Position numbers and translations under genes: made by a program. The notes beneath the pieces were generated by a model. That model worked only from the letters and a program-made list of their open reading frames with translations, made no database searches and was not told where the DNA came from. Below, piece after piece: positions 3,968 through 33,525 of a DNA stretch of 64,000 nt. Source of the stretch: Candidatus Saccharimonadia bacterium (GTDB taxonomy: Bacteria; Patescibacteriota; Saccharimonadia; UBA4664); NCBI GenBank assembly GCA_038245115.1, contig JBBRSS010000004.1, positions 1,804 to 65,803 of the forward strand. The letters run 5' to 3'. Within the stretch, counting starts at the first letter, position 1; every line of letters begins with the position of its first letter.

Positions 3968-3983
3968 TGTGATCTTAATCACA
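3968..3983. promoter_or_regulatory. Perfect CRP-family palindrome TGTGATCTTAATCACA in the divergent MMPL / cytochrome-b-like intergenic region
   Basis: TGTGA-N6-TCACA read directly from the sequence. It sits 86 bp upstream of the 4069 start and about 113 bp upstream of the 3855 start. Confidence 0.45.
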
Positions 3984-4068: not shown

Positions 4069-5478
4069 ATGGCTAAACGCAATTCTTCTTCCAGACCAAT
4101 TCGCACTGCCCTGCAAAATCTCATGATTCGCGATGTCCCGTCCTATGCCAACAAGTTCGCCTATTCGCTGGGTTTTCTTTCGGCCGTCTCATTCTTTTTG
4201 CTAGTTGCCACCGGCATTATTATGGCTATGGCCGGGCCTCATTGGTGGATAACCAGCTCCTTAGGGCAGTATCTGCGCAGCTTCCATCTCTGGGCTACCC
4301 AAGCCTTCGTCGTATTTATCCTGCTGCATTTAACGATTGTATTTCTAACGTCAGGCTACAAAGGCTCCCGCAAATTCACCTGGGTGCTGGGCGTCTTGAT
4401 GTTCTTCTTTGCTCTAGCCGAAGCCGAATTCGGTTACGTATTGCGTGGAGATTTCTCCTCTCAATACCGCAGCCTGCAGGGTTCCGACCTCTACAACGGC
4501 AGCGGTATAGGCTGGGTTCTCAACAACCTCAACACCGGTCAAGTCATGGGCATTCACATTGCAGTATTGCCGCTGACCTTAATTGTCCTCATTCTGGCCC
4601 ATTATTTTCTTGTGCGGGTCCTTGGTATTGGCAAGCCGTCACCGGCCGCCGACGCTTACCCGATGGTCAAAGCGAATCACGGCTTACTATTTTGGCGCGG
4701 CGGTACCGTAATTGCGCTGGTGGCGGCCTTGGCCTTTGCTTACCCTTCGCCCTATTTGGCGCCGCTGACTATCAGCAAGATTGCCAGTGACGATCCGGCG
4801 CTAATTTCGCAAACCCTCGTTAAGGAATTTGACGGCACATCCGACACCGCCACCTATAAAAACAATATTGCCCCGTACACGTTTAATTCGCGGTCCGTCT
4901 ATATCGAGGCCCCCTATACGCAGCTTAAGGCTACCCAGACCACTCCTAGCCAATTGAAGCTGTTCCTGGCACAGCCAGCCGAGGTTCAAAAGACGCAGCT
5001 TGATGCCGCCACGGCGTTTTATGCTGCCGACCCAGTGAGCAAAACGCTGCCCAAGGGCAACCAGGCCATCGCCGTAGTCGACAGCCTTACGACCATGGCA
5101 AAAAGCGGCCTCTACGAAGCCGCTCTGCGCGACAGCAACGGATCCGGCTACCAAACTACTTATGTGGTCAGGTTCTTGTCTGATACTGGTGTACCCGAAG
5201 AAACCGCCACTAGTATGAATATGACCACAGATCAATACGGCATGGTTCGCGAAGAGGCCAACAGCCAAGCACCCGGCGCTTGGTGGCTGGCACCAATCGG
5301 GTTGCTCAACCACACCGTCCTGGCCAAAGATGAGGACAACGGCGACCGCGACGGTGCTATCATTATTGGCACCTCCTTGCTTCTGTTGCTGGCCTTTCCC
5401 TTTATTCCGTTCCTAAACCGGCTTCCTGAGGTGTTGCGTATACGCAAGCTGTTTTGGCGCAAACCAAGCTCCAAGTAG
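4069..5478 (+). CDS. Di-heme cytochrome b N-terminal-domain protein (b6 type) fused to a roughly 200-aa extracytoplasmic domain between two extra TM helices
   Basis: Helix B carries H-x13-H (FHLWATQAFVVFILLH) and helix D carries H-x14-H (GIHIAVLPLTLIVLILAH), which is the b6-type spacing. RKFTWVLGVLMFFFALAEAEFGYVLRGDFSSQ matches the cytochrome b TW..G....AF.GYVLPWGQMS block. The quinol-site C-terminal domain is absent, replaced by a TM, a soluble domain and a final TM. Confidence 0.65.
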   Translation: MAKRNSSSRPIRTALQNLMIRDVPSYANKFAYSLGFLSAVSFFLLVATGIIMAMAGPHWWITSSLGQYLRSFHLWATQAFVVFILLHLTIVFLTSGYKGSRKFTWVLGVLMFFFALAEAEFGYVLRGDFSSQYRSLQGSDLYNGSGIGWVLNNLNTGQVMGIHIAVLPLTLIVLILAHYFLVRVLGIGKPSPAADAYPMVKANHGLLFWRGGTVIALVAALAFAYPSPYLAPLTISKIASDDPALISQTLVKEFDGTSDTATYKNNIAPYTFNSRSVYIEAPYTQLKATQTTPSQLKLFLAQPAEVQKTQLDAATAFYAADPVSKTLPKGNQAIAVVDSLTTMAKSGLYEAALRDSNGSGYQTTYVVRFLSDTGVPEETATSMNMTTDQYGMVREEANSQAPGAWWLAPIGLLNHTVLAKDEDNGDRDGAIIIGTSLLLLLAFPFIPFLNRLPEVLRIRKLFWRKPSSK

Positions 5479-5540: not shown

Positions 5541-5993
5541 ATGAAAAAACTCTTACTAGGTGCATTTGTTGTCGGAAGCTATATCATATATAGCTTCCAT
5601 CAGCGCGGGGAGGGATCAGCGGCCGTGGTGCCGCCATCTATCCAATCCACGCCGCCCGCCTCAGGGGCTACTGCCACTCCAGGTGCTGCCTCTACGCCTG
5701 CTGTTGCCTATAAGGACGGGCAATATACCGGCCAGTCTGCCGATGCCTACTACGGCTACATTCAGGTAAAAGTGACGATCTCCGGGGGTAAACTGTCCAA
5801 CGTTGAATTCTTGCAATCTCCCAGTGATCGATCCACCTCGGTGCGAATTAACTCTCAAGCCATGCCCTACCTCAAACAGGAGGCCATACAGGCTCAGAGC
5901 GCCGGCGTAGACGGTGTTTCTGGCGCCACCGATACCAGCCAAGCTTTCATCCAGTCCCTAACATCTGCGCTCAAAGCCGCACAAGCAGCTTGA
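5541..5993 (+). CDS. Membrane-anchored FMN-binding-domain protein (FMN_bind), predicted ApbE flavinylation substrate
   Basis: N-terminal TM (LLLGAFVVGSYIIYSF), a Pro/Ala/Thr linker, the YKDGQYTG FMN_bind start, and the flavinylation motif VDGVSGAT (Thr codon at 5928-5930). Confidence 0.75.
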   Translation: MKKLLLGAFVVGSYIIYSFHQRGEGSAAVVPPSIQSTPPASGATATPGAASTPAVAYKDGQYTGQSADAYYGYIQVKVTISGGKLSNVEFLQSPSDRSTSVRINSQAMPYLKQEAIQAQSAGVDGVSGATDTSQAFIQSLTSALKAAQAA

Positions 5994-6733
5994 AACAGAC
6001 CCGACAAATAATGGGTATGCCGGTGACGCTTATTGTCGAGGATGAAACTGCCTCCGCAGACATATTTGATCAAGCCTATGCTTATTTTACGAAGGTCGAT
6101 CAAGCCTACAGCCCGTACATCGCCACCAGCGAAGTCTCGCGAATTAACTCTGGCCTGCCCGAATCTGATTGGAGCCCCCAAATTACCGAGGTCGCGCAAC
6201 TATGCCGCGACACCTCCACTGCCACCGATGGCTATTTCGACGCCTGGCATCACGGCAAATTCGATCCCTCCGGTATCGTCAAGGGCTGGGCTATCAATAA
6301 TGCCGCCAAGCTATTGAGCAGCCTTGGTTGTCAAAATTATTACGTTGAAGCGGGTGGCGACATTCAGGTGAGCGGTTTTAACGCTTCGCACGAACCTTGG
6401 CATATTGGCATTCGCAACCCGTTTGATCGCCGGCAGAACGTCAAGGTGGTCTCGCTTAGTACCCAGGGAATTGCCACCTCGGGGCTTTATATCCGCGGCG
6501 CACATATATACAACCCACACGATGATAAAGCGCAACTTTCCGAAGTCGCTTCTCTGAGCGTCATCGGGCCAAATATTTACGAAGCCGACCGCTTCGCCAC
6601 CGCTGCTTTTGCAATGGGCCCTGCCGGCATCAATTTTATCGAGTCGCTGCCGGGCCTAGAGGCTTATATGATAAATAAGTCAGGCCAGGCGACGCTCACA
6701 AGCGGCTTCGAGCAGTATGTGAGGGCTAATTGA
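5990..6733 (+). CDS. apbE: ApbE-family FAD:protein FMN transferase (short form with no signal peptide)
   Basis: MGMPVTLIV, FDPSGIVKGWA, AGGDI and NPHD blocks of ApbE. TTG start in a TTGA overlap with the upstream stop. 247 aa beginning directly at the conserved MG.P block. Paralog of 13712..14449. Confidence 0.7.
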   Translation: MKQTRQIMGMPVTLIVEDETASADIFDQAYAYFTKVDQAYSPYIATSEVSRINSGLPESDWSPQITEVAQLCRDTSTATDGYFDAWHHGKFDPSGIVKGWAINNAAKLLSSLGCQNYYVEAGGDIQVSGFNASHEPWHIGIRNPFDRRQNVKVVSLSTQGIATSGLYIRGAHIYNPHDDKAQLSEVASLSVIGPNIYEADRFATAAFAMGPAGINFIESLPGLEAYMINKSGQATLTSGFEQYVRAN

Positions 6734-8247
6734 TGAAATATCTCGATAAATTCCTCGACCGCATCACCATGTACCATTTGTTGGTCTATTACTTGTACGC
6801 GCTTCTGGGTGCTGCCATGCTATTGAGTGCAGTTGGCGCCTTGGCATATAATCCGCTGGCAATCGCTATTTCTGCCGGTTATTTAGTAGCGGTTTGCCTG
6901 GTAGCCAACCGTGTCTTTGCGGCCATCTTTAAAGCCCCAAGCAATCCTGAGTCATCCCTCATTACTGCCCTCATTTTGGCTTTAATTATTACGCCGCTAG
7001 CCTCTATCCAGAGCCTGGTATTCTTAACTGCCGCCGCCGGGCTCGCTATTGCCTCAAAGTATTTACTGACCATCCGGGGACGGCACATTTTTAACCCCGC
7101 CGCAGTGGCCGTAGCACTAACGGCGGTGGGCGCCGGCGAATCTGCCAGCTGGTGGGTGGGCAGCGCGGCTCTAGCTCCGGTGGTGATCATTGGCGGCATC
7201 ATGTTAGTACGCAAGGTCAGGCGGGTCCAGATGGTGGCGCTGTTCATTATCACTGCCGTGGTCGCTACGTCTATATTAACCATCATCAGCCAAGGCAATG
7301 TCGTCGGCGAAATCCAAAAAACCTTCCTGCAGTCATCATTGCTCTTTCTTGCATTTGTGATGCTCACTGAGCCGTTGACCTCGCCCGCACAAAGTCGTCA
7401 TCAACGCTGGTATGCCATATTGGCCGGGGTACTCTTTCCGCCCCAGATTCATTTGCTGTCGCTCTATTCCACGCCCGAACTTGTGCTGCTAATTAGTAAC
7501 ATCTATGCCTATATCGTTAATCCCAAGGTCAAGCTGTTGCCTTTGCTCCAAAAAAAGATTTCTTGGGGTCCGAATACTGCCGATTTTGTCTTTGCCCTCG
7601 ACCAGCCGATAGATTATTTGCCGGGACAATATATGGAATTTACTTTGCCGCACTCCAAACCGGACTCTCGCGGCAGCCGGCGTTACTTTACACTCGCGTC
7701 GTCACCAACTGAAAATAATCTTCGCTTGGGCGTTAAATTCTATCCCCGAGGCAGTACATTCAAACAGGCACTTCGCAACATGGGCAAGACTACGCCCTTC
7801 GCTGCGGCCCAGTTGAGTGGCGACTTTGTTCTCCCCAACGACTCTACCCGCAAACTCGCCTTCGTCGCCGGCGGTATCGGCGTGACACCATTTAGGAGTA
7901 TGATCAAATACTTGTCCGACACCGACGACCCCAGATCTGTGACCTTATTGTATTCCGAGCGGACCGCGGCCGATTTGGCGTACGTTGATGTATTCACGGC
8001 CGCCCAAGCCAAACCTGGGACCAAAATTGTCTATACCCTCACCGATGCCAACACAGCGGTACCGACAGGCATGCAGGCTGGGTTCATTACTGCCGAAATT
8101 ATTCAAGCCGAAATTCCTGACTACAAAGACCGTCTTTTCTACATTTCCGGGTCTCATTCTATGGTAAGTGCTATGCAGTCAGCCCTAGGCGAGCTCGGAG
8201 TATCTAAGCACAATATTAAGATTGATTTCTTCCCCGGCTACGTTTAA
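6733..8247 (+). CDS. Fusion of a polytopic membrane domain (NqrB/RnfD-like, HIFNPA motif) with an FNR-type FAD/NAD(P)-binding oxidoreductase domain
   Basis: N-terminal ~270 aa with about 8 TM and GRHIFNPAAV. C-terminal RRYFTLASSP (FAD RxYS/T motif) and AFVAGGIGVTPF (NAD GGxGxxP). TGATG overlap with apbE. Confidence 0.6.
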   Translation: MKYLDKFLDRITMYHLLVYYLYALLGAAMLLSAVGALAYNPLAIAISAGYLVAVCLVANRVFAAIFKAPSNPESSLITALILALIITPLASIQSLVFLTAAAGLAIASKYLLTIRGRHIFNPAAVAVALTAVGAGESASWWVGSAALAPVVIIGGIMLVRKVRRVQMVALFIITAVVATSILTIISQGNVVGEIQKTFLQSSLLFLAFVMLTEPLTSPAQSRHQRWYAILAGVLFPPQIHLLSLYSTPELVLLISNIYAYIVNPKVKLLPLLQKKISWGPNTADFVFALDQPIDYLPGQYMEFTLPHSKPDSRGSRRYFTLASSPTENNLRLGVKFYPRGSTFKQALRNMGKTTPFAAAQLSGDFVLPNDSTRKLAFVAGGIGVTPFRSMIKYLSDTDDPRSVTLLYSERTAADLAYVDVFTAAQAKPGTKIVYTLTDANTAVPTGMQAGFITAEIIQAEIPDYKDRLFYISGSHSMVSAMQSALGELGVSKHNIKIDFFPGYV

Positions 8248-8266
8248 TTGGTGGCCCACTGTAACC

Positions 8267-8665
8267 TTACTTATCGCGCCGGTGATCAATTCGCTCACCA
8301 AAAACTTGTGCATCCTGGCCAGCTGGGTAGCCACCCTGCATAGTCTTTTCTTCGGCGCCCGCAACATCTAGCGCAACTCCGCCCGAAGACCTCAGGACAA
8401 GGTTAAACACAAAGCCGTTCACGTAACCAATCAACCATCCGATGGCAAAGTAGACAACGGGTAACACAAACAGTGACAAGGCACCGATCGTCATACCCAT
8501 AAGCAACCCCTGTATCAAACTATCGGTGGCATTCGTGTACGCAATTGTCCCGCTAAACAAATACATTATTGACACTACCAGACCAATAATCGCACCAAAC
8601 ACACCCTCAAACATCGCTACTGTTGATGGCTTAATTCCTGTAACCATTACCTCTCGTTCATTCAT
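8267..8665 (-). CDS. Hypothetical small membrane protein (3-4 TM)
   Basis: ORF of 132 aa with hydrophobic helices, convergent with the upstream redox module. Confidence 0.4.
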   Translation of the reverse strand: MNEREVMVTGIKPSTVAMFEGVFGAIIGLVVSIMYLFSGTIAYTNATDSLIQGLLMGMTIGALSLFVLPVVYFAIGWLIGYVNGFVFNLVLRSSGGVALDVAGAEEKTMQGGYPAGQDAQVFGERIDHRRDK

Positions 8666-8841
8666 AATTCCGTACTCCTTATACCCAAAATTCTAAGCCT
8701 CCTCCAAGGCGCTAGACATTGGAAGATCATCCATGAATTCTGCACATCCGAAGCATTATTTTCGACAATACTAGGCTCCCGGTGGGCATTACCGGGTGCG
8801 ACCGTTTTCGTCCAGTTAGGCCTGCTAACATATATTCGCCC

Positions 8842-10884
8842 TTAGGCAGCGGCGGTCAGCGCAGGCGCCGCAAACTGGCTATTGTATAGCGAAGCGTAGA
8901 AACCGTCCCGGTATATAAGCTCCTCGTGAGTGCCCTGCTCCACAATATTGCCATCCTGCATTACCAGTATTAAGTCGGCGTTTCGGATCGTCGACAGCCG
9001 GTGCGCAATCACAAAGCTAGTCCGGCCCTTCATGAGCCGCTCCATGGCAGCCTGAATCATTATCTCCGTACGAGTGTCAACCGAGCTTGTCGCCTCGTCG
9101 AGGATCAACATGGGGGTGTCGGCTAACATGGCACGCGCAATCGTAATCAACTGCTTCTCGCCCTGAGAGATATTGTCTGCTTCCTCGTTGAGCATCATCT
9201 TATATCCGCCGGGCAGAGCGCGAATGAAGTGGTCGGCATGCGCCGCTTCTGCTGCCTCAACCACTTCCTGGTGAGTAGCCTTGGATTTACCGTAAGCAAT
9301 ATTGTCCTCGATTGTGCCATTAAATAACCAAGTGTCTTGCAGAACCATGCCAAATAGGCGTCGCACATCCGAGCGCTTCATCTCGCGGATATCAACACCA
9401 TCCATCCTGATACTGCCTTCGCTAACATCGTAAAATCGCATGAGCAGGTTTACGATTGTCGTCTTGCCGGCTCCCGTCGGGCCAACGATCGCCACCCGCT
9501 GACCCGGTCGAATAGCCGCATTCAAGCCCTTGATGACGGTTTTATCTGGGGTATAGCCAAAGACCACATTATCAAACTCAACGGCGCCCCTGACCTTGTC
9601 GATCGCGACGGGACTAGCTGCCTCCGCGACCTCTTCGTCCTCATCCAAGAATTCAAATACTCGCTCGGCCGCCGCTGCCGTAGACTGCAATACGTTAGCA
9701 ATGTTGGCAGTCTGGGCAATTGGCTGGGTGAACTGGTTCATATATTGAATAAATGCCTGAATATCACCGATGTTGACCTTGCCGTTAATTGCCAGCCATC
9801 CGCCTAACACCGCCACCGCAACATATCCTAAATTGCCCACGAATTGCATTATCGGCATCATTAACCCGGAGAGAAATTGTGACCGCCAAGCACTTCCGTA
9901 CAGCTCGGTATTAATCGAGCGAAATTTCCCAACTGAGCGCTTTTCACCGTTAAATGCCTTCATGACGGTATGGCCCGATAGCATCTCTTCCACGTGGCCG
10001 TTTATCTTGCCGAGAGACACCTGTTGGGCAACAAAATAGCCCTGTGACTTTCCGACGATCAGCTTTATTAGCACCATGCTAACCGGTAGCACCAACAGCG
10101 CGACCACCGTCATTTGCCAGCTAATCGTCAGCATAATAATCAGGATGCCGATTATGGTTGTCACCGAGGTTACGATCTGGCTCAGACTTTGGTTCAGGGT
10201 TTGGCTGACGGTATCGACATCGTTGGTCACCCGGCTCAGGACTTCGCCGTGCGTACGGTTATCAAAATATCGCAGCGGCAAGCGGCTGATTTTCTCGGAA
10301 ATATCGCGGCGTAAGTTAAAAGTTACCTTTTGTGATACGCCGGACATTATCCAGCCTTGAATGTAGCTAAAGAGGGCGCTAATGACGTAGAGTCCCACCA
10401 GCAACTCCACTAGCTTGGCGATGCCGCCAAAATCGATCGTTGGCCGTTTGGACAGGTTTAGGGTGGCAATTTTATTGAGCTCTTTGGCGGGAATTCGCTT
10501 GATATCACTTGCCGGCATCAGTTTAATCAACTGGGCCCCGGTCATACCCGGCGGAATATGCATGCCGGCAGGTAGTTTTCGCATCACTTGGTCGTAAACC
10601 ATCCCGTCTATATAACCGGTAGCAACTTTATTGGTGACGTTGCCCAATATTTTTGGACTGACTACCGCAAAAATTGTACTGGCAATCGCAAATATTAGCA
10701 CCGCCACAATCGATAATCTAAATGGCCGCAGGTATTTCAGCAGGGTTCGCATTGTTCCCTTGAAATTCTTTGGTTTCTCGGCCGGCCCGCCCATCATTGG
10801 ACCTCGTCCCATCCCCATTCCTAATGTTGCGGGAGGAGGGCTTTTGGGAGTTCGCGGTGCCGAGTTGGAGTGATTATTGCTCAT
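8842..10884 (-). CDS. ABC exporter, fused permease/ATPase (type I, MsbA-like), heterodimer partner 2
   Basis: 6-TM domain plus NBD with Walker A GPTGAGKT, signature ISQGEKQ and Walker B ILDEATS. 4-nt overlap with the upstream ABC gene. Confidence 0.85.
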   Translation of the reverse strand: MSNNHSNSAPRTPKSPPPATLGMGMGRGPMMGGPAEKPKNFKGTMRTLLKYLRPFRLSIVAVLIFAIASTIFAVVSPKILGNVTNKVATGYIDGMVYDQVMRKLPAGMHIPPGMTGAQLIKLMPASDIKRIPAKELNKIATLNLSKRPTIDFGGIAKLVELLVGLYVISALFSYIQGWIMSGVSQKVTFNLRRDISEKISRLPLRYFDNRTHGEVLSRVTNDVDTVSQTLNQSLSQIVTSVTTIIGILIIMLTISWQMTVVALLVLPVSMVLIKLIVGKSQGYFVAQQVSLGKINGHVEEMLSGHTVMKAFNGEKRSVGKFRSINTELYGSAWRSQFLSGLMMPIMQFVGNLGYVAVAVLGGWLAINGKVNIGDIQAFIQYMNQFTQPIAQTANIANVLQSTAAAAERVFEFLDEDEEVAEAASPVAIDKVRGAVEFDNVVFGYTPDKTVIKGLNAAIRPGQRVAIVGPTGAGKTTIVNLLMRFYDVSEGSIRMDGVDIREMKRSDVRRLFGMVLQDTWLFNGTIEDNIAYGKSKATHQEVVEAAEAAHADHFIRALPGGYKMMLNEEADNISQGEKQLITIARAMLADTPMLILDEATSSVDTRTEIMIQAAMERLMKGRTSFVIAHRLSTIRNADLILVMQDGNIVEQGTHEELIYRDGFYASLYNSQFAAPALTAAA

Positions 10885-12680
10885 ACGACCCCTCCGCCCG
10901 CCAGTGCGCCGCCAATATTGTCATCGTAAGACACGTCCCCCAGGGCCTTGGCTAGCTCGCCTTCAGATAATTGGGACGAGGCTATTTCGCGGTAAACCGC
11001 ACAGGTCTTAAGCAACTGGGTATGCGTTCCTTGGCCGACAATGTTACCACCATCAAGCACAATAATCTTCTCGGCCTGAATGATTGTGCTAATTCGTTGC
11101 GCCACAATTATCACGGTTTTGCCGGCCGTTTCATGCCCGAGGGCCTGCCGCAAGTTGGCATCCGTTTTAAAGTCCAACGACGAGAAGCTGTCGTCGAAGA
11201 TATATATCTCGGGCTTCTTGGCTAGTGCTCGGGCGATAGCCAATCGCTGTTTTTGACCACCCGAAACATTAGCGCCCCCCTGGGAAATCGGGCTCTGGAA
11301 CCCTTGCTCCAACTCACCAATAAATTCTGACGCTTGCGCAGTCCGAGCGGCATGCTCGACCTCAGCTTGGGTTGCCTTAGGATCGCCGTACCTAATGTTG
11401 TCCTCCACTTTACCCGAAAACAGCACGGCTTTTTGCGAAACATAGCCAATTCTGGCGCGCAGGTCCTCTTGCAGCATGTCCCGAATATTAACCTTGTCGA
11501 CCAGAATGGACCCCCCAGTAGCATCATAAAAGCGGGGGATTAGATTGATGAGGGTGGATTTGCCACTGCCGGTGCTCCCAACTAAGGCTGTTGTCTGTCC
11601 TGGTATGGCAGTAAAACTAATATGATGAAGCACAGGCTCTTCTGCCCCCGCATAACCAAAACTTACGTCCCGAAACTCGACCAGACCCTTGCCGATAGGC
11701 GTTCGTACCGGACGCTTTGGATCTTTGATGGTCGCTTCGGTATCTAGCACCTCGGCGACTCGATGGGCCGAAACCGATGCCCGCGGCACCATAATGAAGA
11801 TAATCGAAATCATCAGGAAAGCAAAAATAGCCTGCATGGCGTACTGCATAAATGCCAGCATGTCGCCGATCTGCAGGCTGCCCGTGTCTATCTGCCGCGC
11901 CCCCACCCATACAACTGCCACCGATGTTAGGTTCAAGATAAGCATCATGGCGGGCTGCATTATTACCATTAGCCGGTTCACAAAGAGGTTAACGTCGGTG
12001 AGTTCTTGGTTGGTTTTTTTAAATTTATGTTCCTCATAAGCTTCTTTGTCGAACGCCCGTACTACCCGAAGCCCAGTCAGAATCTCGCGTGTTACCAGGT
12101 TGAGCCGGTCGACCAGCTGCTGTAGCTGAGTAAATTTTGGAATTGCCGTGATAAACAATACTGTGATGATACTTATGAGGGTGAGAATCGCGATTGCCAT
12201 AATCCAGGCCATCGAAGGTGCCAGCTGGTAGGCCTTAATTATCGCGCCGATGCCCATGAACGGCGCCATCAATGCCAACCTCAACAGCATACCTAGCACC
12301 GTCTGGATCTGTTGAATATCGTTGGTGCAGCGGGTAATTAGTGAGGCGGTCGAAAAGGTGTTGAACTCGATTAGCGAAAAGCTCTCAACCTTCGTAAACA
12401 CTCTATCGCGTAGCTGCATGGCGAAGCCGGTCGCCACGCGTGAGGCCAAATACCCGACGCCAACCATACAGGCACCACCGAACAGGGCAATCAGCAGCAT
12501 TAGTAGGCCATTGCGTAAAATTAGGCTGCCGTCTTGGCCGACTATTCCCTGATTAACAATCTTGGCCATGTAGTCGGGCAGCGCCAATGTCGCGGTCGTT
12601 TGCCCATACGTTAAGATCAACATTAGGATCAGCAGCCATTTATACGGAGCGAAGTATTTGAGTAGTTTCAGGGTCTGCAT
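10881..12680 (-). CDS. ABC exporter, fused permease/ATPase, heterodimer partner 1
   Basis: Walker A GSTGSGKST, signature VSGGQKQRLAIARAL and Walker B IYIFDDSFS. Confidence 0.85.
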   Translation of the reverse strand: MQTLKLLKYFAPYKWLLILMLILTYGQTTATLALPDYMAKIVNQGIVGQDGSLILRNGLLMLLIALFGGACMVGVGYLASRVATGFAMQLRDRVFTKVESFSLIEFNTFSTASLITRCTNDIQQIQTVLGMLLRLALMAPFMGIGAIIKAYQLAPSMAWIMAIAILTLISIITVLFITAIPKFTQLQQLVDRLNLVTREILTGLRVVRAFDKEAYEEHKFKKTNQELTDVNLFVNRLMVIMQPAMMLILNLTSVAVVWVGARQIDTGSLQIGDMLAFMQYAMQAIFAFLMISIIFIMVPRASVSAHRVAEVLDTEATIKDPKRPVRTPIGKGLVEFRDVSFGYAGAEEPVLHHISFTAIPGQTTALVGSTGSGKSTLINLIPRFYDATGGSILVDKVNIRDMLQEDLRARIGYVSQKAVLFSGKVEDNIRYGDPKATQAEVEHAARTAQASEFIGELEQGFQSPISQGGANVSGGQKQRLAIARALAKKPEIYIFDDSFSSLDFKTDANLRQALGHETAGKTVIIVAQRISTIIQAEKIIVLDGGNIVGQGTHTQLLKTCAVYREIASSQLSEGELAKALGDVSYDDNIGGALAGGGVV

Positions 12681-12683
12681 ATA

Positions 12684-13106
12684 TTACTTAGAATCCTGCA
12701 GTAGTCCTAGGATACGGTCAAGTTCCTGCATATCGCTACGGTTTAATTTATCCAACATTCCCCCGGCGTGCCTCATTTTTTCCTTGAGTAACTGCACTAG
12801 CTTCTTCCCGGCTTCGGCCGACAATGCCAGGTAAATACTGCGACGGTCGTTCTCGTCCGGCGTTCGTATGAGCCAGCCGGATTCAACCAACCGATCGGCC
12901 AGCAGGGTAGCCGAGCCGGGAGAAATGAGCAACTCATCCGCCAGCTCGCGCATCCGTATCGGCTGTTCGTTCTTGATGAAGAACAGTGCCTGCATTTGGT
13001 GCATGGTGAGGTTCTCCACGCCGGTGTCTCCGGCGCTTTGTTGTCTCATCCGGCGGTTGATCTGGTACCAGTGGGTCAATATTGAACGCTTGAGATCTTC
13101 TTGCAT
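12684..13106 (-). CDS. MarR-family transcriptional regulator, first gene of the marR-abc-abc operon
   Basis: wHTH block LTMHQMQALFFIKNEQPIRMRELADELLISPGSATLLADRLVESGWLIRTPDENDRRS. Start taken at the internal Met (MQEDLK...), giving 140 aa. Confidence 0.75.
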   Translation of the reverse strand: MQEDLKRSILTHWYQINRRMRQQSAGDTGVENLTMHQMQALFFIKNEQPIRMRELADELLISPGSATLLADRLVESGWLIRTPDENDRRSIYLALSAEAGKKLVQLLKEKMRHAGGMLDKLNRSDMQELDRILGLLQDSK

Positions 13107-13109
13107 TTG

Positions 13110-13248
13110 AAACCAATATATTACGTTAGCGATACTAATAGTTCGTATATAAAAGTAATATACGCAACTAACCCTCGAATCGTCAATCAATCATTCTTAA
13201 GCCAAACTTTATTCGGTTGACTACTTCAAAATGGGACTATAATGATAA
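13110..13248. promoter_or_regulatory. AT-rich divergent promoter region with dyad repeats (CGTATATAAAAGTAATATACG; TTAGCGATACTAA), candidate MarR operators
   Basis: Inverted repeats read directly from the sequence between the divergent marR and dsbB-like starts. Confidence 0.3.
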
Positions 13249-13707
13249 ATGGTTATGAATAAACTCAACCCCAAGTCAGATAAGCCTCATCTGCCCGTCG
13301 CCGCTATAGTCGCCTGGGTTACCGCCCTGCTCGCCTCGGCCGCCAGCGTTTACTTTATCGAAATCTTGCACAACCCAGTTGCTACATTGTGTTGGGTTGA
13401 CCGAATGTTGGTCTTTTCGCTCCTGCTCGTGCTCACCGTTGGCATTATCGACCGAGACCGGCGCGTCGTGCGTTTTTGTTTCCCGTTTTTGGCCCTGGGT
13501 CTACCGCTGTCTTTCTATCAGCAGCTCGTGCATTGGGACCTCATCCACATCAATCCTCAGGTTTGCAGCATCAGCTATGTTTGTACAACCAAATATTTCA
13601 ATCTCTTCGGCATTATTACTCAAGCCACCCTCTGTTTTGCCGCTTTCGTCATTATTGCCGTGTCGATGTATATGCTGCGGGATCGTCACTTGCCAGCCAA
13701 GCCCTAG
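13249..13707 (+). CDS. DsbB/BdbC-family disulfide-oxidoreductase-like membrane protein with loop-1 CxxC replaced by TxxC
   Basis: Four TM. SVYFIEILHNPVATLCWVDRM aligns to the BdbC PCxLCWYQR block but keeps only one Cys. The second periplasmic loop keeps C-x5-C (CSISYVC) and the YFNLFG block. Confidence 0.5.
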   Translation: MVMNKLNPKSDKPHLPVAAIVAWVTALLASAASVYFIEILHNPVATLCWVDRMLVFSLLLVLTVGIIDRDRRVVRFCFPFLALGLPLSFYQQLVHWDLIHINPQVCSISYVCTTKYFNLFGIITQATLCFAAFVIIAVSMYMLRDRHLPAKP

Positions 13708-13711
13708 CTGG

Positions 13712-14449
13712 TTACGGCCGCTCAAACCTGCGAAAACCTTCGGTTAATACTACTCGGCCCTGCTTGTCGATCGACATTGCCTCGTAACCTTGTCTATGTA
13801 AAAACGGTAATGCTTGATCGCCCATGCAAAATGCCGCCGTCGCCAGAGCATCAACTTGGTCAATTGTTGGGCCGATTACGGTTAGACTCACCGGGTCCTC
13901 AACCATCTGCCCGGTTCGAGGATTGTATATATGGTTGCCGCGTTCGTAATTGCCCGAGGTAGCAACGGCCATATTTTTAAGGTAAAGCTTTTTTGCCAAC
14001 TTAGTGGGGTCAAAAGGATGGGCGATCCCGATAACCCATGGGCCTCCGGATGGTCCGTCGCCGCTAATCTGCATATCGCCCCCGGCATTAATGCAGTACC
14101 GGGTGATGTCGCGGCTGTTGAGGAGTCGTGCTGCGCGGTAAATAGCCCACCCCTTAACGTATCCGGACGGGTCGATATGCCCATCTCGTGCCACGTCAAA
14201 GTACCCTTCGGTCAATTTTTTCAAACGGGCGCATTCCTCCAGCACCGCCCGCAAATCATCACTCGATTTCGGCAACTCTAATTCGCCGCGGTTAAGCCGA
14301 CTAACCTCGCTTGTGGGCTTATAGGTACTAAACGCCTCGTCAACCTCGTGGAAATATTCAAATACATCGTCGATGGCGGCGTCCGCCGCATTGCCGTCAA
14401 GCACCTCTAGGGTGATAGGCATACCCATTATATTTTGTGAAACTTTCAT
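13712..14449 (-). CDS. apbE: ApbE-family FAD:protein FMN transferase, second paralog (no signal peptide)
   Basis: MGMPITLEV, HIDPSGYVKGWA, AGGDMQ and NPRTG blocks. Collinear with the 5990..6733 protein at about 40-50% identity. Confidence 0.7.
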   Translation of the reverse strand: MKVSQNIMGMPITLEVLDGNAADAAIDDVFEYFHEVDEAFSTYKPTSEVSRLNRGELELPKSSDDLRAVLEECARLKKLTEGYFDVARDGHIDPSGYVKGWAIYRAARLLNSRDITRYCINAGGDMQISGDGPSGGPWVIGIAHPFDPTKLAKKLYLKNMAVATSGNYERGNHIYNPRTGQMVEDPVSLTVIGPTIDQVDALATAAFCMGDQALPFLHRQGYEAMSIDKQGRVVLTEGFRRFERP

Positions 14450-14458
14450 GACTTTCTA

Positions 14459-16060
14459 TTGTACAATAACCATATGCACGATACGCCGCTAGAGAACGCG
14501 CAAAAGCTCATTTCGGAAGGAAAATCGACGGCCGAAATAAGGGCTGCTCTCAATGGCGAAAGCTTTGTGCCTTCGCCAGCTGTTGCGCCGCAGGCAAGCC
14601 TCACCCCCGCCGCCTCGAATGCAGCCTCTTCGCCCAAACCCAACGCCTCGGCTTCGCCTCAGCCGCCCGCTTCGGCCCCTCCTGCTCCCGCACCGAAGCC
14701 GATGGTCTACCCGCCGCTGCTGGATACGCCGCTACGGACGGGCGTTCAGGCCCCCAAGCTAGGCTGGCCGCTGATAGTGCTGGCCTGTTTAATACCGGCG
14801 CTCGCAATATCAGTCGATACGCCCTTTGCTGAGCGATTTGGTAGTTTATCGAATGCCCTTATTGCTTTCGGCGACATTACAGGTGTCATTGGCCTGGCGG
14901 CGTACGTTCTCAATTTGGTGCTGGCAACCCGCTTTCATTGGCTGGAAGATTTGTTTGGCGGCCTCAACCGCGCCCTGATAGCCCATCAAGTTTTGGGCGG
15001 CATAGCACTTATTATGCTGCTATTTCACCCCATCCTCACGGCAGCCTCTTACTATTCCTACGGTGTCCAGGCAGTTGCCCATTTTTTTGTGCCTTCGGTC
15101 GCCTATATTGGCACGGCTTTCGGTATTGTTGCTCTCGCGATGATCATCATCTTGTTGGTCCTGAGTTTCTATATCAAAATTGGCTACCGACTATGGCTGC
15201 AAACCCATAAATACCTTGGTCTGGCCTATCTCCTCATAATGCTGCATGTCCTATTGACGCCGAATCGCATCACGGCTGACCCGTTTGTTAAATGGTACCT
15301 GTACCTTCTTCTGGTTGTGGGGGCATTTGCCTTTATTTATCGCACGTTACTGCCAAATATATTCGTCCGCCGGTATCTGTATACCATTGCCGCTGCGCAG
15401 CCCAAAGGCATCGGCGTAGTCGAGGTTACGTTGGCGCCAGTGAACAAATCCGTCCACGTTCGAGCTGGGCAATTTATTTTTGTGACATTCAGTAGCGATG
15501 GGCTATCGTCCGAATCGCACCCTTTTAGCATCTCATCGGGCGAGAACTCCAACCAGCTGATGATCGACGTCAAGTCGCTCGGGTCGTATACGGAAACTCT
15601 CACCCGGCTTCTACCGCATATGGTTGGCATGACGGCTCAGGTTGAGGGAGCATATGGCCGATTTTCGTACCGCAACATTGGGAATTTAAACCAAGTTTGG
15701 ATTGGCGGGGGAATAGGTATAACGCCGTTTCTGAGTATGGCGCAAACTCTCGGATCCGGGCCGTATAATATCGACCTGTATTACTCGGTAAAGACGGCAA
15801 GTGAGCTAATTGACCTCGACACCCTGGCGATCCATCAATCCAACCTACCGGGCCAGGTGTTTCGGACTTTTCCGTTTATCACTGAAACTTACAAGTCGTA
15901 CTTGAGTGCCGGCATCATCAAGAAGAATAGCGGCAATCTCGATAAACGGGACTTCCTCTTGTGCGGCCCGCCCGGCATGATGCAGGAAATCAAGAAGCAG
16001 CTCATAAAGCTTGGGGTCAAAGAAACTCGGATTCACAGCGAAGAATTCTCGCTCGAATAA
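14459..16060 (+). CDS. NOX/ferric-reductase-family flavocytochrome: a 6-TM bis-heme domain plus FAD and NAD(P)H domains, with a Pro/Ala/Ser-rich N-terminal extension
   Basis: TM3 has H-x13-H (IAHQVLGGIALIMLLFH) and TM5 has H-x12-H (THKYLGLAYLLIMLH), the NOX spacing. HPFSISS is the FAD motif and GGGIGITPF the NAD motif. The first ~95 aa are low-complexity. Confidence 0.7.
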   Translation: MYNNHMHDTPLENAQKLISEGKSTAEIRAALNGESFVPSPAVAPQASLTPAASNAASSPKPNASASPQPPASAPPAPAPKPMVYPPLLDTPLRTGVQAPKLGWPLIVLACLIPALAISVDTPFAERFGSLSNALIAFGDITGVIGLAAYVLNLVLATRFHWLEDLFGGLNRALIAHQVLGGIALIMLLFHPILTAASYYSYGVQAVAHFFVPSVAYIGTAFGIVALAMIIILLVLSFYIKIGYRLWLQTHKYLGLAYLLIMLHVLLTPNRITADPFVKWYLYLLLVVGAFAFIYRTLLPNIFVRRYLYTIAAAQPKGIGVVEVTLAPVNKSVHVRAGQFIFVTFSSDGLSSESHPFSISSGENSNQLMIDVKSLGSYTETLTRLLPHMVGMTAQVEGAYGRFSYRNIGNLNQVWIGGGIGITPFLSMAQTLGSGPYNIDLYYSVKTASELIDLDTLAIHQSNLPGQVFRTFPFITETYKSYLSAGIIKKNSGNLDKRDFLLCGPPGMMQEIKKQLIKLGVKETRIHSEEFSLE

Positions 16061-18193: not shown

Positions 18194-19135
18194 ATGAAAG
18201 CAGCTCAGATCAACGAATATGGTGATGCTGGTGTCGTAAGCACGGTTGATAATGCCAGCAAGCCGGGAATTGACCCGGGCCAGGTGCTCGTGGAAGTCTA
18301 CGCCGCGGGCGTAAATCCGTTCGACTGGAAGGTCCGCGAAGGCATGGTTCGGCAGATGGCCGAGCTCACATTCCCCGGGGCTGTCCTTGGCGGCGATTTG
18401 GCCGGAGTGGTCGCCGAAGTCGGTGCGGAAGTTACCGATGTGAAGGTCGGGGATGAAGTTTACGGCCTAGCCGGCGCCCTCAGTAGCCACGGTTCTTTCG
18501 CGCAGTTTGCGCCCGCCGCCGCTGGCTCTATTGGGGCTAAGCCCAAGAATATCGACTCCACCACCGCCGCCGCCCTGCCGCTGGCCGGAGTCAGCGCATA
18601 CCAGGCTCTCGTCGAAACGCTTCATTTGTCCTCGGGGCAAAAGATTCTCGTTCACGGCGGTGCCGGCGGTATCGGTAGCCTTGCCATCCAGCTTGCCAAA
18701 CACCTCGGAGCCACCGTGGCCACGACCGTCTCGGCGGCCGGGGTCAGTTACGTCAAGAGCCTCGGCGCCGACGTCGTCATTGACTACGAACAGCAGTCAT
18801 TCAAAGATGAACTGTCCGACTACGATGCGGTCTTTGATACCATCGGTGGCGAAGTCTATGCTCAGTCTTTTGAAGTCCTCAAGGAAGGCGGGTCTATCGT
18901 GTCCATGAGCGCGGCCGTCGATGAAGCCCTCGCGTCTGGGCACAAAGTCACGGCTTACTCGCAGTTCACTCAAGCCACTACCGAGCGGCTGGCCGAGCTC
19001 ACTAAGCTTGTCGAAAGCGGCGCCATCAAAGTTAATATCGACCGTCTCTTCCCGCTCGAGCAGGCCAGTGAAGCCCTCGAATACGTCAAAACCGGCCGCC
19101 CTATCGGCAAGGTTGTCATCAAAGTCCGGGACTAA
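18194..19135 (+). CDS. Zinc-independent MDR-family NADPH:quinone oxidoreductase
   Basis: GroES-like N-terminus, GGAGGIGSLAIQLAK Rossmann motif, 313 aa. Confidence 0.7.
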   Translation: MKAAQINEYGDAGVVSTVDNASKPGIDPGQVLVEVYAAGVNPFDWKVREGMVRQMAELTFPGAVLGGDLAGVVAEVGAEVTDVKVGDEVYGLAGALSSHGSFAQFAPAAAGSIGAKPKNIDSTTAAALPLAGVSAYQALVETLHLSSGQKILVHGGAGGIGSLAIQLAKHLGATVATTVSAAGVSYVKSLGADVVIDYEQQSFKDELSDYDAVFDTIGGEVYAQSFEVLKEGGSIVSMSAAVDEALASGHKVTAYSQFTQATTERLAELTKLVESGAIKVNIDRLFPLEQASEALEYVKTGRPIGKVVIKVRD

Positions 19136-19604: not shown

Positions 19605-21209
19605 TTAGCGCAGTACGTCGTCGCGTTTATCGCGCAAAAATGAGTTCCACTGCTCAATAATTCTGAGGATTGTTTTGAACGGTGTTTCAATAATAATGTC
19701 CAAGATCGACGTGAAGATATTGATTCGGCTGTAGCGCTCGGCCAGCCATTGGCCCGCCCGAATGAAGGGTGTTAGCAGAAAATCGCTTAAATTCGCGATG
19801 AGGCCCGGGTCTTCCTCGATAACAGCGTACTCACGGACCGAGTAGGCGATACGGTAGGCAAAGAAGCTGACCGTCGAGAGAAATACGAAGAAAATAATTC
19901 CGCTTACTAGGTTGAATCCGACTATCTGCAACATCCACGATATTGCCGCCAAAGTTGCCAATGAGGTTAGCAAATAAAACAGGCTAAATGTGCTGCGCAT
20001 TTTTGACGTCCGCCCGCGACTGGATAGGGTGTAGCGTATTGGCTGCTGATCCGAAACATACACGATCTGCTTCAAATCGCTCAGGATTTTGGTGGTGTTG
20101 CGTTGGCCGGGGATCTTAATTGTGAGTCCGACCATTGCCATATATAGCGGCGGGAAGAGCAGATTGATTCCGAGCGGCAGGTAGTTGACCGCGCCGTAGG
20201 CGAATAGTTCATACGGAATCTCGATAATCATCCCCAAGACTACCTTGGTAATAAACAGGAATATTACCGCCTGCACCACGCTGCGTTTGAGGCGGCTCGA
20301 TACCACTTGATACTGCGTTTCGGCCACACTTCGGGCTTTTTCGATCAGTACGGATGGGGTAGTGGCGAGCTGCTCGAGGCCTTCGTGGCTGGTTTTGATA
20401 ATTTCGCGCAAAATCAGATACGGCGCAATGTGGCGACGCACTAACCGGAACATACGATGTGGGGTGGCACCCCCAGTTTGGTCATCCAGCTGAGCATTAA
20501 TTTCGACAAATTGCTTGCCGGCAGCCTCTAGTTGGGCATTATCCTCGAGCCAGCGGGGGAAGGCTCGCGAAAATACCCCGTAACGGATAGTTGCAATATC
20601 AGATTTCAATAGTGCCTTGTGTACGGCGGCGTACAGTGCCATTTGGTCTTCTCGGGCCACATCGGCGTGATCTATGAACGCCGCATACGTAAACTCGACT
20701 ATCGCGGCCTCGGTCGGGTTCGGCTGCAATGCCCGCTCGAGCTCCACCGAGAGCAAAGCGATAATATTGCTGGCAATTTCGTCGTGACTATCGTGACTTC
20801 GCGATAGCGCCGTCTGTTGTAGCGAGCCGTACCGCCGAACAATGTAATCGATATACTCAATTTCATCTTCGCGGATAGTGTCGTTATCCAAATAGCGGGT
20901 TTTGGTAAGTTCGCTTACCAATTCAAACCCGATGTCTTCCGACCCGTTGGGTTTTAATTCACGCAGTAAAAATCGTTCAATTGCGCCGCGCAAGAATAAG
21001 TGTTGTTCGCGATACTCAACGGCATTGCGAATCTGCTCATACAAAAAATATGCCCCGGCGGTAATTTCCGGAACGTGGACCTTTGTGCCTTTCCAGACCG
21101 GAGCCTGTTGCGCACGCAATAGCTGCACGAGTCCTTGCATTAGCGGTGATAACTTCGGCGCGTCCGCGGACGGGGCGGCAGTTATCTTATTCTCGAGCGG
21201 ATTATGCAT
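19605..21209 (-). CDS. Hypothetical protein, large N-terminal soluble domain plus C-terminal 4-TM region
   Basis: ORF of 534 aa with no recognised motifs; hydrophobic helices at residues ~330-450. Confidence 0.45.
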
Positions 21210-26362: not shown

Positions 26363-28021
26363 ATGAATTTAAAAGACGATATTTCTCGAATTATATCTGG
26401 TGAAGTTGAGGATGCTCCCGAGGCCCTGGAAGCTTATAGCCACGATGCCAGTCTGTTCGAAGTCAAGCCACAAATTGTGGTCTATCCCAAGAACGCCGAT
26501 GACGTGAAGGCGTTAGTAAAGTACGCCAAAGCCAACAAAACCGAGAGCTCAAACCTTTCCATTACCGCCCGTAGTGCCGGTACCGATATGTCGGGCGGCG
26601 CGGTTAACGATTCAATCATTGCCGATTTTAACCGTCATTTTAACCAGATATTTGATGTTTCACCGACCCTCGGCCACGCTCAACCAGGCGTGTTCTACCG
26701 CGATTTCGAGAAAGCTACGTTTGAGCACAAAGCCCTCATGCCCAGCTATCCCGCATCGCGCGATCTCTGCACTATTGGCGGAATGGTCAATAATAATTCC
26801 GGCGGCGAAAAGTCGCTCGAATTTGGTAAGACCGAGGATTTCGTGACGCAGCTGAAGGTGGTATTTGCCGATGGCAACGAATACACTGTTGAGCCCCTCA
26901 CGCGGGAAATGCTCGAGGTTAAGAAGCAACTCAACACCTTTGAGGGCGAAGTATACCGCAAGACTTTCGACCTGGTCGATAAGCATTACGACGCCATTAA
27001 GGCCGCCAAGCCAAATGTCACCAAGAACTCCACCGGCTATAATCTCTGGGATGTCTGGGACCGCAAGACTGGTATTTTTGACCTCACCAAGCTGATCGTT
27101 GGCGCCCAAGGTACCCTCGGCCTCACCACCGACATCAAGTTCCGATTGGTGCCGCACCGGCCGCATTCCGGGGTGCTCGTCGTATTTTTACGCGATATCG
27201 ACCGCCTAGGCGAGGTCATTAACGTAGTTCTCAAGAGCAAGCCGGCATCGTTCGAATCATTCGATGACGTCACCCTCATGCTGTCTATTAAGTTCATGCC
27301 CTACTTCCTCAAGATGCTTGGACTCAAAAAGTTCATTCATTTATTGATTGGGCTCATCCCCGAAGGCTTTTTACTTCTGCGCGGTATCCCGAAGCTGATT
27401 CTTATGATCGAATTTAACGGTGAGACTGTCGATGAAGTTCGCGAAAAGGTGAAGGCCCTCGATCGCCAGCTCTACACCAAGCATGCCTATTACGAAATCG
27501 AAGGATCGGAAGAAGACCCTACCGAGAGTAAGGCCGAAAAGTTTTGGATAATGCGCCGCCAAAGTTTTCAAATTTTGCGCAAAAAGGTCAAAGACAAGCA
27601 CACTGCGCCGTTTATTGACGATTTGGTAGTCAACCCCGAGTATTTGCCCGAGTTTTTGCCGCAAATGCGCAAGATCATCAAGAAATACAACCTCTTTGCG
27701 ACGATAGCCGGCCACATGGGCGATGGTAACTTTCACATTATTCCATTGATGAAGCTCGAAAAGCAGTCCGAGCGCGATAAGCTTCGCCCTGCCATGCAAG
27801 AAACCAACGAGCTTGTGCTCAAGTATCATGGTGTTCTCTCCGGCGAACACAACGACGGCATGATCCGCGGCCCCTGGCTGCAGCGAGCGTACGGTGACGA
27901 AATTTATGGTTATTTCAAAGACGTCAAAGATATTTTCGACCCCCAGGGCATCTTCAACCCCCACAAAAAGGCTAATGCCGACTGGGATTGGACCATGAGC
28001 CACATCCGGCAGTCATTCTAG
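26363..28021 (+). CDS. FAD-linked oxidase (PCMH-type FAD-binding; GlcD/D-lactate dehydrogenase-like)
   Basis: FAD_binding_4 block YPKNADDVKALVKYAKANK...ITARSAGTDMSGGAV plus an FAD-oxidase_C-like C-terminus. 552 aa. Confidence 0.7.
   Translation: MNLKDDISRIISGEVEDAPEALEAYSHDASLFEVKPQIVVYPKNADDVKALVKYAKANKTESSNLSITARSAGTDMSGGAVNDSIIADFNRHFNQIFDVSPTLGHAQPGVFYRDFEKATFEHKALMPSYPASRDLCTIGGMVNNNSGGEKSLEFGKTEDFVTQLKVVFADGNEYTVEPLTREMLEVKKQLNTFEGEVYRKTFDLVDKHYDAIKAAKPNVTKNSTGYNLWDVWDRKTGIFDLTKLIVGAQGTLGLTTDIKFRLVPHRPHSGVLVVFLRDIDRLGEVINVVLKSKPASFESFDDVTLMLSIKFMPYFLKMLGLKKFIHLLIGLIPEGFLLLRGIPKLILMIEFNGETVDEVREKVKALDRQLYTKHAYYEIEGSEEDPTESKAEKFWIMRRQSFQILRKKVKDKHTAPFIDDLVVNPEYLPEFLPQMRKIIKKYNLFATIAGHMGDGNFHIIPLMKLEKQSERDKLRPAMQETNELVLKYHGVLSGEHNDGMIRGPWLQRAYGDEIYGYFKDVKDIFDPQGIFNPHKKANADWDWTMSHIRQSF

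Positions 28022-28584: not shown

Positions 28585-28585
<1 letters not shown>
28151..28585 (-). CDS. atpC: F1 ATP synthase epsilon subunit
   Basis: Operon position; GQIGVLPNHEPL; C-terminal helices. Confidence 0.8.
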
Positions 28586-30856
<2,271 letters not shown>

Positions 30857-30859
30857 TGA

Positions 30860-33302: not shown

Positions 33303-33309
33303 AGTTAAA

Positions 33310-33525
33310 TTACTTGAGGAACTTAATGATCAGCGCGACCACCAGGCCGATGATGGCCAAGGCGTCCACGAAACCCATGGCGAGAATCATCATGGTACGA
33401 ATCTTGCCGATGGCGTCGGGGTTACGGCCGACTGCGCCGACGGCAGCAGCGCCTACGAGCCCGAGGCCTACGGCGGCCAAGCCGCCAGCGATTGAATATG
33501 TTAGTCCGAATGCGAGGGAATCCAT
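33310..33525 (-). CDS. atpE: Fo ATP synthase c subunit (ion-binding carboxylate is Asp)
   Basis: 71-aa hairpin with GRNPD loop and ..FVDALAIIGLVVAL... Confidence 0.85.
   Translation of the reverse strand: MDSLAFGLTYSIAGGLAAVGLGLVGAAAVGAVGRNPDAIGKIRTMMILAMGFVDALAIIGLVVALIIKFLK

Follow-up and report, generated by a model that had tools for sequence, protein, structure and literature searches.

A Saccharibacterial cytochrome b6-like protein with an outward-facing domain and its split relatives in Actinobacteria and Chloroflexi

A 64,000-nucleotide stretch of the Candidatus Saccharimonadia bacterium assembly GCA_038245115.1 (contig JBBRSS010000004.1, positions 1,804 to 65,803; hereafter the window, in which all positions are counted from its first letter) carries at 4069-5478, on the plus strand, a gene with an ATG start for a 469-residue membrane protein, the sole long open reading frame (ORF) of its stretch. 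The best explanation of this protein, to which we give a probability of roughly 0.55, is a di-haem cytochrome b that belongs to the b6 lineage, works without a Rieske protein and is joined to a much altered module resembling subunit IV, so that the gene would encode a fused cytochrome b6-like and subunit IV-like protein. The structural and evolutionary side of this description can be held with considerable assurance; for the functional side the odds are about even. It represents, in fused Saccharibacterial form, a compact operon common among Actinobacteria and Chloroflexi in which two adjoining genes encode the haem domain and the outward-facing domain.

The four-helix haem domain

As judged from profile and alignment evidence, the N-terminal part of the protein is a genuine cytochrome b6-type di-haem domain, with haem binding itself predicted. 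It scores 47.5 bits against PF13631 (Cytochrom_B_N_2; gathering threshold 27, E=2.6e-12) and 37.8 bits against PF00033 (Cytochrome_B; gathering threshold 27.2, E=2.3e-9). A profile built from 69 family sequences finds cytochrome b6 chains as its best sequence match in the Protein Data Bank (PDB; E=2e-21), and the profile-to-b6 alignment places all four candidate ligand histidines, gap-free, on the b6 haem ligands of helices B and D. The protein contains seven histidines (58, 73, 87, 163, 178, 204 and 415) and no cysteine. The aligned residues form the pairs H73-x13-H87 in helix B and H163-x14-H178 in helix D, and b6 itself has the x14 spacing in helix D. By alignment to b6, H73 (4285-4287) and H163 (4555-4557) would ligate the P-side haem (bL), and H87 (4327-4329) and H178 (4600-4602) the N-side haem (bH), all on the plus strand. 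The predicted four-helix haem bundle, helices A-D, covers residues 36-184 (4174-4620, plus strand).

Residues H73, H87, H163, H178, G35, G49, G108, G122 and R70 are invariant in the 69-sequence alignment, and the four histidines and four glycines are at least 90% conserved in the split family described below as well. The glycines lie within or adjoining helices A and C as the pairs G35/G49 and G108/G122, 14 residues apart, and are the presumptive haem-packing glycines, such pairs packing the haem in cytochromes b (PMC5600118). Because the Pfam and PDB profile matches, the register of the four histidines and the invariance of the ligands and glycine pairs coincide, the predicted haem domain is real, far beyond a chance pattern. 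An assembly or frameshift artefact was also considered and rejected, as more than 480 independent clusters show the same architecture. An earlier sequence-only reading of this DNA had proposed a cytochrome b N-terminal domain of the b6 type with H-x13-H and H-x14-H spacing and a TW..G..L...A.AF.GYVL-type block, to be checked by alignment to PF00033 and PF13631. These proposals hold: both families are matched with the ligand histidines in register, and the block is present as FTWVLGVLMFFFALAEAEFGYVL.

Topology and the C-terminal half

Transmembrane (TM) segments were placed by hydropathy at residues 36-56 (A), 73-95 (B), 103-124 (C), 159-181 (D), 206-229 (TM5) and 431-452 (TM6), and sidedness was read from counts of lysine and arginine under the positive-inside rule. 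These residues number six in the N-terminus, three in the BC loop, four in the DE loop and six in the C-terminal tail, and one and two in the AB and CD loops, respectively, which gives the canonical orientation of cytochrome b with the N-terminus inside. The segment 232-430 is net acidic, with 15 lysines and arginines against 23 aspartates and glutamates. Because of this acidity and the positive-inside charge pattern, the soluble domain at 232-430 is placed outside the cell membrane. The sequence-only reading had likewise set a soluble domain outside and had found its fold unrecognisable; the charge pattern offers no cytoplasmic placement, and the domain matches no Pfam family at E<=10.

The region after helix D can be divided into four parts, all on the plus strand. 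A helix-E-like TM5 (residues 204-229; 4678-4755) is followed by an all-alpha ectodomain (residues 230-385; 4756-5223), a family-specific insertion without a recognisable fold. Next comes a conserved segment resembling the ef loop of cytochromes b (residues 386-418; 5224-5322; TTDQYGMVREE....PGAWWLAPIGLLNHTVL), which occupies the position of the quinol-oxidation (Qo) motif right before the last TM segment; fused and split forms alike keep its residues Q389, G391, M392, E396, G403, W406 and L407. The helix-F-like TM6 (residues 425-452; 5341-5424), delimited by hydropathy, an AlphaFold model and hhalign, leads into a basic cytoplasmic tail, and the protein ends 17 residues past TM6. The PFIP.LN motif by TM6 has its counterpart in the PFIPGL of the split family.

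Structure comparison suggests that TM5 corresponds to helix E and TM6 to helix F, with the ectodomain, of about 160 residues, inserted in the ef loop. The best structural matches of the AlphaFold model are long QcrB-type cytochromes b, and the part after helix D must supply the extra 90-100 structurally aligned residues; in the model, helices E and F appear packed against the haem bundle. A derived subunit IV-like module is proposed because this comparison agrees with the occurrence of a split form, in which two genes stand as petB and petD do. The sequence part of the argument is suggestive. Alignments by hhalign to subunit IV (2e74_B, sequence verified) are weak (P 0.003-0.03) yet colinear: TM6 aligns to helix F with all three profiles used (fused, combined and split), and with the split-family profile the alignment runs from the WYQ before TM6, set against the Trp-Tyr of PEWY, through helix F. 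In Pfam searches at E<=10, PF00032 was found neither with residues 200-469 nor with an ectodomain-deleted version, the last 84 residues or the ectodomain alone. A Helicase_C_3 match to the C-terminal part in these searches was dismissed as chance.

The residues common to both forms at 90% or more are concentrated on the P side. The AB and cd loops contribute G56, P57, W59, W60, Q132, D140, N143, G146, G148, N152 and Q158, and the ectodomain and ef segment contribute T249, E253, S258, Y263, D372, Q389, G391, M392, E396, G403, W406, L407 and D426. The cd loop itself (residues 127-155, DFSSQYRSLQGSDLYNGSGIGWVLNNLNT; 4447-4533, plus strand) is remodelled and highly conserved, with Q132, D140, N143, G146, G148 and N152 kept in fused and split forms, and is modelled with low confidence. 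When compared with the canonical motifs (Qo motif survey: PMC4122944), GY.LPW.Q becomes GYVLRGDFSSQ in this protein, so that the cd-loop PW reads RG, and the position of PEWY/PDWY reads PGAWW. The AlphaFold predicted local distance difference test (pLDDT) score is below 50 for residues 127-145 and 386-403, the two most conserved P-side stretches. Stretches that are conserved yet of low pLDDT would fit a ligand- or cofactor-dependent pocket beside haem bL.

Fused and split forms

A protein search recovers more than 480 clusters at 90% identity, all of 445-490 residues and with at least 95% query coverage; those fused relatives that have names come from Candidatus Saccharibacteria or Saccharimonadales and are annotated as "cytochrome b N-terminal domain-containing protein". 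With one genome scanned per GTDB species, the fused form is found in 94 species, nearly all of them represented by metagenome-assembled genomes (MAGs) of Saccharimonadia/Patescibacteria, some of which carry questionable NCBI labels. Confined to Saccharibacteria, the fused architecture is a conserved lineage trait. One fused variant, P0121 (982 residues), continues past TM6 with an extra TM segment and a beta-propeller of about 480 residues (a weak PQQ_2/BamB-like match), which may represent an extracytoplasmic partner joined to the protein, or a fusion made by the gene call.

The split form came to light with a profile of residues 228-424, which matches 39 of 1.84 billion representative proteins. 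These are fused forms and stand-alone proteins of 250-360 residues, the latter consisting of a TM segment, the homologous domain, the motif Q-W-G-M-M-N-E-T-G-x-Y-P-G-Q-x-W-L, a second TM segment and P-F-I-P-G-L, and the homology extends across TM, ectodomain, motif and TM. The split ectodomain subunit in turn has more than 5128 matches, all labelled "hypothetical" and none with a Pfam domain, from sources that include Microbacterium, Leifsonia, Diaminobutyricibacter, Acidimicrobiales and Chloroflexi. It directly follows a short cytochrome b (211-242 residues), with overlapping stop and start codons; in 59 of the 60 metagenomic loci with enough upstream sequence the gene for the short cytochrome b comes right before it, and the two genes adjoin in locus L161 too, where an apparent fusion was discounted as a wrong-frame read-through ORF in high-GC DNA, which makes the pair adjacent in 60 of 60 loci. 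The gene pair is organised like petB/petD, with the break right after helix D.

The two halves of the window protein resemble these subunits closely enough to define one family. Its N-terminal domain is 33-42% identical to the short split-form cytochromes b, which carry the same unusual cd-loop signature, GY..R.DF.SQW. The window protein shows the full family signature, namely a cytochrome b with GY..R/Q.(D/N)F.SQ together with a TM segment, an alpha domain, Q[WY]GM..E..PG..W, a further TM segment and PFIP.L. In the actinobacterial and Chloroflexi loci examined, the split cytochrome b is preceded by an ORF of 49-63 residues with a single TM segment, whose stop overlaps the cytochrome b start (L089 7130-7279; L090 7106-7297; L091 5960-6121), and no counterpart of this small ORF was seen upstream of the window gene. 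In the literature, no paper was found that describes the ectodomain subunit or the fused protein.

Comparison with known systems

The protein shares with b6/subunit IV (PetB/PetD) and with the Firmicute-type split bc complexes a four-helix di-haem bundle with H-x13-H/H-x14-H spacing. It is also b6-like on the N side, with TSG[YF]KKPR.LTW and, after helix D, R..GI..P, and its split relatives break after helix D as petB/petD do. However, the CxGG position of b6 reads S33-L-G-F, without cysteine, so that no haem cn (third haem) is expected, and the score against the NCBIfam cytochrome b6 model (NF002990) is 54.7 bits where the cut-off is 325. Unlike subunit IV, the second module has two rather than three TM segments, an insertion of about 160 residues and no P[E/D]W[Y/F], and unlike b6f there are no linked Rieske, cytochrome f or cytochrome c genes. 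The long cytochromes b of bc1/bcc complexes (actinobacterial QcrB, 7q21_B) are about 13-20% identical; in contrast to them, the window protein has no helices G and H, has lost the Qo signatures and has no Rieske or cytochrome c partner.

The top NCBIfam model for the N-terminal domain is ExtP (NF040969), from a selenite/tellurite reduction operon, which is likewise short, b6-like and not part of a classical bc complex. However, the score is 67.1 bits against a cut-off of 290, and ExtP has about 205 residues, no fused second module and an unrelated operon. Subfamily G of Dibrova et al. (2017), a heterogeneous group of mostly short, split and fused proteins, lists cytochromes b of Candidatus Saccharibacteria, Patescibacteria and Ktedonobacteria (PMC5600118). 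The main text of that account contains neither the ectodomain subunit nor the Rieske-less three-gene operon nor the 469-residue fusion (PMC5600118).

Proposed function

We infer haem binding, quinone use, the direction of electron flow and the partner as follows. The two haems would carry electrons across the membrane. At the inner end, a quinone/quinol site may lie on the cytoplasmic side beside bH, in keeping with the b6-like N-side sequence and with R183, which is conserved near the proposed site. At the outer end, a remodelled P-side pocket, formed by the ectodomain together with the cd loop and the ef-loop segment, would pass electrons to an extracytoplasmic acceptor or take them from a donor there, with no Q-cycle involved. 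The sequence-only reading had suggested haem-mediated electron transfer to a periplasmic or extracellular partner, which is plausible. Since there is no Rieske centre, a bifurcated Q-cycle is not expected, and a simple quinol-oxidising or quinone-reducing transmembrane wire is more likely. For the clade of the window, a flavinylated FMN-binding protein encoded 62 bp downstream would be the most obvious candidate partner. A membrane quinone pool is plausible because a class 2 dihydroorotate dehydrogenase, a quinone-dependent enzyme, is encoded in the window (39644-40840, minus strand) and passes the NCBIfam cut-offs NF003652 and TIGR01036.

Expression of the gene is probably under a Crp/Fnr-type regulator. 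A CRP/FNR-type palindrome, TGTGATCTTAATCACA, lies at 3968-3983 (plus strand), 86 bp upstream of the start codon, and is the sole TGTGA-N6-TCACA site in the 64-kb window, where 0.01 would be expected. Related loci totalling 1.23 Mb contain 11 perfect sites, 10 of which sit 39-111 bp upstream of the cytochrome b ORF, and sites with at most one mismatch occur upstream in 15 of 74 loci as opposed to 0.5% of background windows. In locus L005, a Crp-family regulator gene is found 1.2 kb upstream. Because the palindrome is unique in the window and recurs upstream of orthologues, Crp/Fnr-type control is likely in part of the family.

Several observations weigh against this picture. The relationship to subunit IV goes undetected by HMMER/Pfam, the split-subunit profile has no match among PDB sequences at E<=10, and hhalign gives it a probability of 2-12%, so that it depends mainly on one template-free AlphaFold model. 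The ectodomain has no cysteine, and no histidine that is conserved across both forms, leaving no obvious cofactor or acceptor site. Clustering of neighbouring genes reveals no partner common to all loci of the fused family or to all loci of the split family, and no universally kept Saccharibacterial neighbour. No experiment on any family member was found in the literature. Soil genomes of Saccharibacteria and other members of the candidate phyla radiation (CPR) are reported to be without quinone biosynthesis genes, and T. rhizospherense to have the last haem-biosynthesis step only (PMC6031116, PMC8407418). Given these reports, both cofactors would need to be scavenged.

A broader proposal is put forward tentatively. 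Fused and split forms may together represent an undescribed class of Rieske-independent cytochrome b complexes, in which the ef loop has grown into an ectodomain of new fold that replaces the Rieske/cytochrome c head; such complexes would act as quinol:extracytoplasmic-acceptor oxidoreductases, or in reverse, and would have been acquired and fused by Saccharibacteria. Saccharibacteria live as epibionts on Actinobacteria. If the proposal is true, a cell without haem or quinone synthesis of its own runs a minimal electron-transfer chain on scavenged cofactors. The family also bears on the evolution of bc complexes from simpler membrane cytochromes, as it appears to be a cytochrome b/subunit IV module without Rieske. 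The analysis brings to light more than 5000 unannotated "hypothetical protein" clusters of Actinobacteria and Chloroflexi that are obligatorily paired with a short cytochrome b, and among their hosts the culturable Microbacterium and Leifsonia offer tractable targets for defining a new quinone-linked activity.

Genomic context and alternative explanations

Genomic context was scanned in about 77 Saccharibacterial and 84 split-form loci, numbered with the prefix L. Downstream of the window gene, three genes follow on the plus strand. The first starts 62 bp past the stop codon of the cytochrome b gene, the gap containing no convincing terminator, and encodes a secreted FMN-binding domain protein of 150 residues with an SGAT flavinylation motif (5541-5993; PF04205, E=3.9e-10). 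It is followed by the flavin transferase ApbE (5990-6733; PF02424, E=6.6e-40) and by an NqrB/RnfD-like membrane domain fused to an NqrF/FNR-like FAD/NAD(P)H domain (6730-8247; PF03116, PF00970 and PF00175). NQR/RNF-like and MsrQ-like extracytosolic flavinylation systems were defined by Meheust et al. (2021), who do not mention cytochrome b (PMC8238504). The genes at 5541-8247 fit the NQR/RNF-like definition, which combines ApbE with a PF03116/PF00175 protein, and those at 13712-16060, described below, fit the MsrQ-like one; both systems move NAD(P)H electrons outward. The cytochrome b itself fits neither as a defined component, and its linkage to them is clade-specific.

This arrangement invites an alternative, unlikely but the best sustained of those considered, in which the cytochrome b is a dedicated part of the downstream NQR/RNF-like electron export. 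The RnfD-FNR protein would oxidise NAD(P)H and pass electrons to the outer flavinylated FMN-binding protein, and the cytochrome b would either accept them from that protein, reducing quinone, or donate electrons to it, with the ectodomain as the dock. Beyond the shared strand and the short gap, gene order is identical in L007-L009, and the same three genes occur, independently arranged, within 0.2-7 kb of the cytochrome b in L010, L045, L065, L068 and L084. FNR, ApbE or Ferric_reduct genes lie near it in further loci, so that about 16 of 77 loci have ApbE, FMN_bind, RnfD-FNR or Ferric_reduct-FNR no more than 10 kb away, in varied orders and orientations, a loose but recurrent co-location well above chance for a genome of about 1 Mb. 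However, direct adjacency of cytochrome b and FMN-binding gene is kept solely in relatives at least 84% identical (L007-L009), about 60 of the 77 Saccharibacterial loci have no such flavin genes within 10 kb, and none of the actinobacterial or Chloroflexi split operons examined is linked to ApbE or FMN_bind. The survey that defines these systems, as noted, leaves cytochrome b out.

The version put forward in the sequence-only reading, in which the N-terminal domain alone is homologous to bc cytochromes and TM5, soluble domain and TM6 are an unrelated, acquired replacement, is improbable. The failure of residues 200-469 to match PF00032 or any other Pfam family at E<=10, the empty PDB search and the low hhalign scores would fit it. 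On the other hand, the split form breaks in petB/petD fashion right after helix D, and the weak hhalign matches are colinear over the Qo motif and helix F. The claim that helices E-H are lacking is right for G and H, which are absent, and not for E and F, which have their apparent equivalents in TM5 and TM6. Structure comparison and the petB/petD-like split form thus point to a modified subunit IV-like module in place of a missing and replaced C-terminal domain.

Slightly less probable still is a device of stress response or redox homeostasis, either a superoxide or oxidant:quinone oxidoreductase like E. coli CybB or an electron sink for hypoxia or dormancy. Split operons in Actinobacteria are at times flanked by genes for Usp, GerE-type response regulators, Pyridox_ox_2, WS/DGAT, HSP20, BON and CtaA, each in a handful of loci, and this gene set, CtaA apart, resembles the DosR dormancy regulon. 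The CRP/FNR-type operator in Saccharibacteria would also suit such a role. However, each neighbour is found in just 5-6 of about 35 loci with enough flank, and the likeness to CybB is the generic similarity of four-helix bundles. The operon of L089 (Microbacterium rhizosphaerae CP139368.1, 2412052-2429101; operon at 7130-9050 of this locus) stands amid genes for Usp, a GerE-type regulator, Pyridox_ox_2, HSP20 and BON, a combination that resembles dormancy/hypoxia regulons of Actinobacteria.

Candidate partners of a classical kind are rare. Among the roughly 160 loci, Rieske-motif ORFs appear in two related Saccharibacterial loci, with one further loose, unconvincing match in the split-form locus L117, and a motif scan finds no Rieske-like motif in the whole 64-kb window. 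The product of both Saccharibacterial ORFs is a small lipoprotein of the Rieske [2Fe-2S] type that has a lipobox and a Tat-like signal, found about 100 bp downstream of the fused gene in L030 (3088-3573) and 7.6 kb from the cytochrome b in L073 (9880-10302); it could be a clade-specific partner, and its lineage comprises about 45 close clusters, labelled as Propionibacteriaceae MAGs, compared with more than 480 for the cytochrome b. ORFs with CxxCH motifs (candidate haem c) were found in 10 Saccharibacterial and 7 split-form loci, and haem-copper oxidase subunit I lies nearby in only two loci by motif scan. No conserved Rieske, cytochrome c or oxidase partner exists among the loci checked. A true Rieske/bc-type Q-cycle complex with partners encoded elsewhere is therefore very improbable, for while the equivalents of helices E and F, the Trp-containing motif at the Qo position and the L030 and L073 lipoproteins would suit one, Rieske ORFs are too scarce, the Qo signatures (cd-loop PW and PEWY/PDWY) are lost, the ectodomain would by its topology occupy the docking place of the Rieske head, and the split operon is a self-contained three-gene unit. 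The sequence-only reading had also argued against a bc complex, and the rarity of Rieske genes and the altered Qo signatures make this probable.

Other genes of the window and of related loci

A second flavinylation cluster at 13249-16060 fits the MsrQ-like system. It comprises a weakly DsbB-like membrane protein (13249-13707), an ApbE (13712-14449, minus strand) and, divergent from the latter, a Ferric_reduct/FAD/NAD fusion of NOX- or MsrQ-like type (14459-16060, plus strand). An operon for an F-type ATP synthase (subunits alpha, gamma, beta, b and a; 28585-34443, minus strand) lies about 23 kb from the cytochrome b. Saccharibacteria and the CPR are generally described as having no electron-transport chains save for an occasional bo3 oxidase. 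A conserved, predicted di-haem cytochrome b in 94 species, together with the dihydroorotate dehydrogenase, two systems that export electrons from NAD(P)H and an ATP synthase within 64 kb, suggests more membrane redox chemistry than has been assumed.

The window also encodes a putative NAD(P)H:quinone oxidoreductase of the PIG3 family, scoring below its cut-off (18194-19135, plus strand), and an FAD-linked oxidase of the GlcD/YdiJ type (26363-28021, plus strand). A 132-residue membrane protein with no Pfam match (8267-8665, minus strand) adjoins the RnfD-FNR gene in L008 too. Two longer ORFs, of 534 residues (19605-21209, minus strand) and 414 residues (57691-58935, plus strand), match neither Pfam nor NCBIfam. 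In L063, the gene directly downstream of the orthologue (11430-13283) encodes a 617-residue protein with FNR-like NAD-binding, PAS and histidine kinase domains, possibly a redox sensor.

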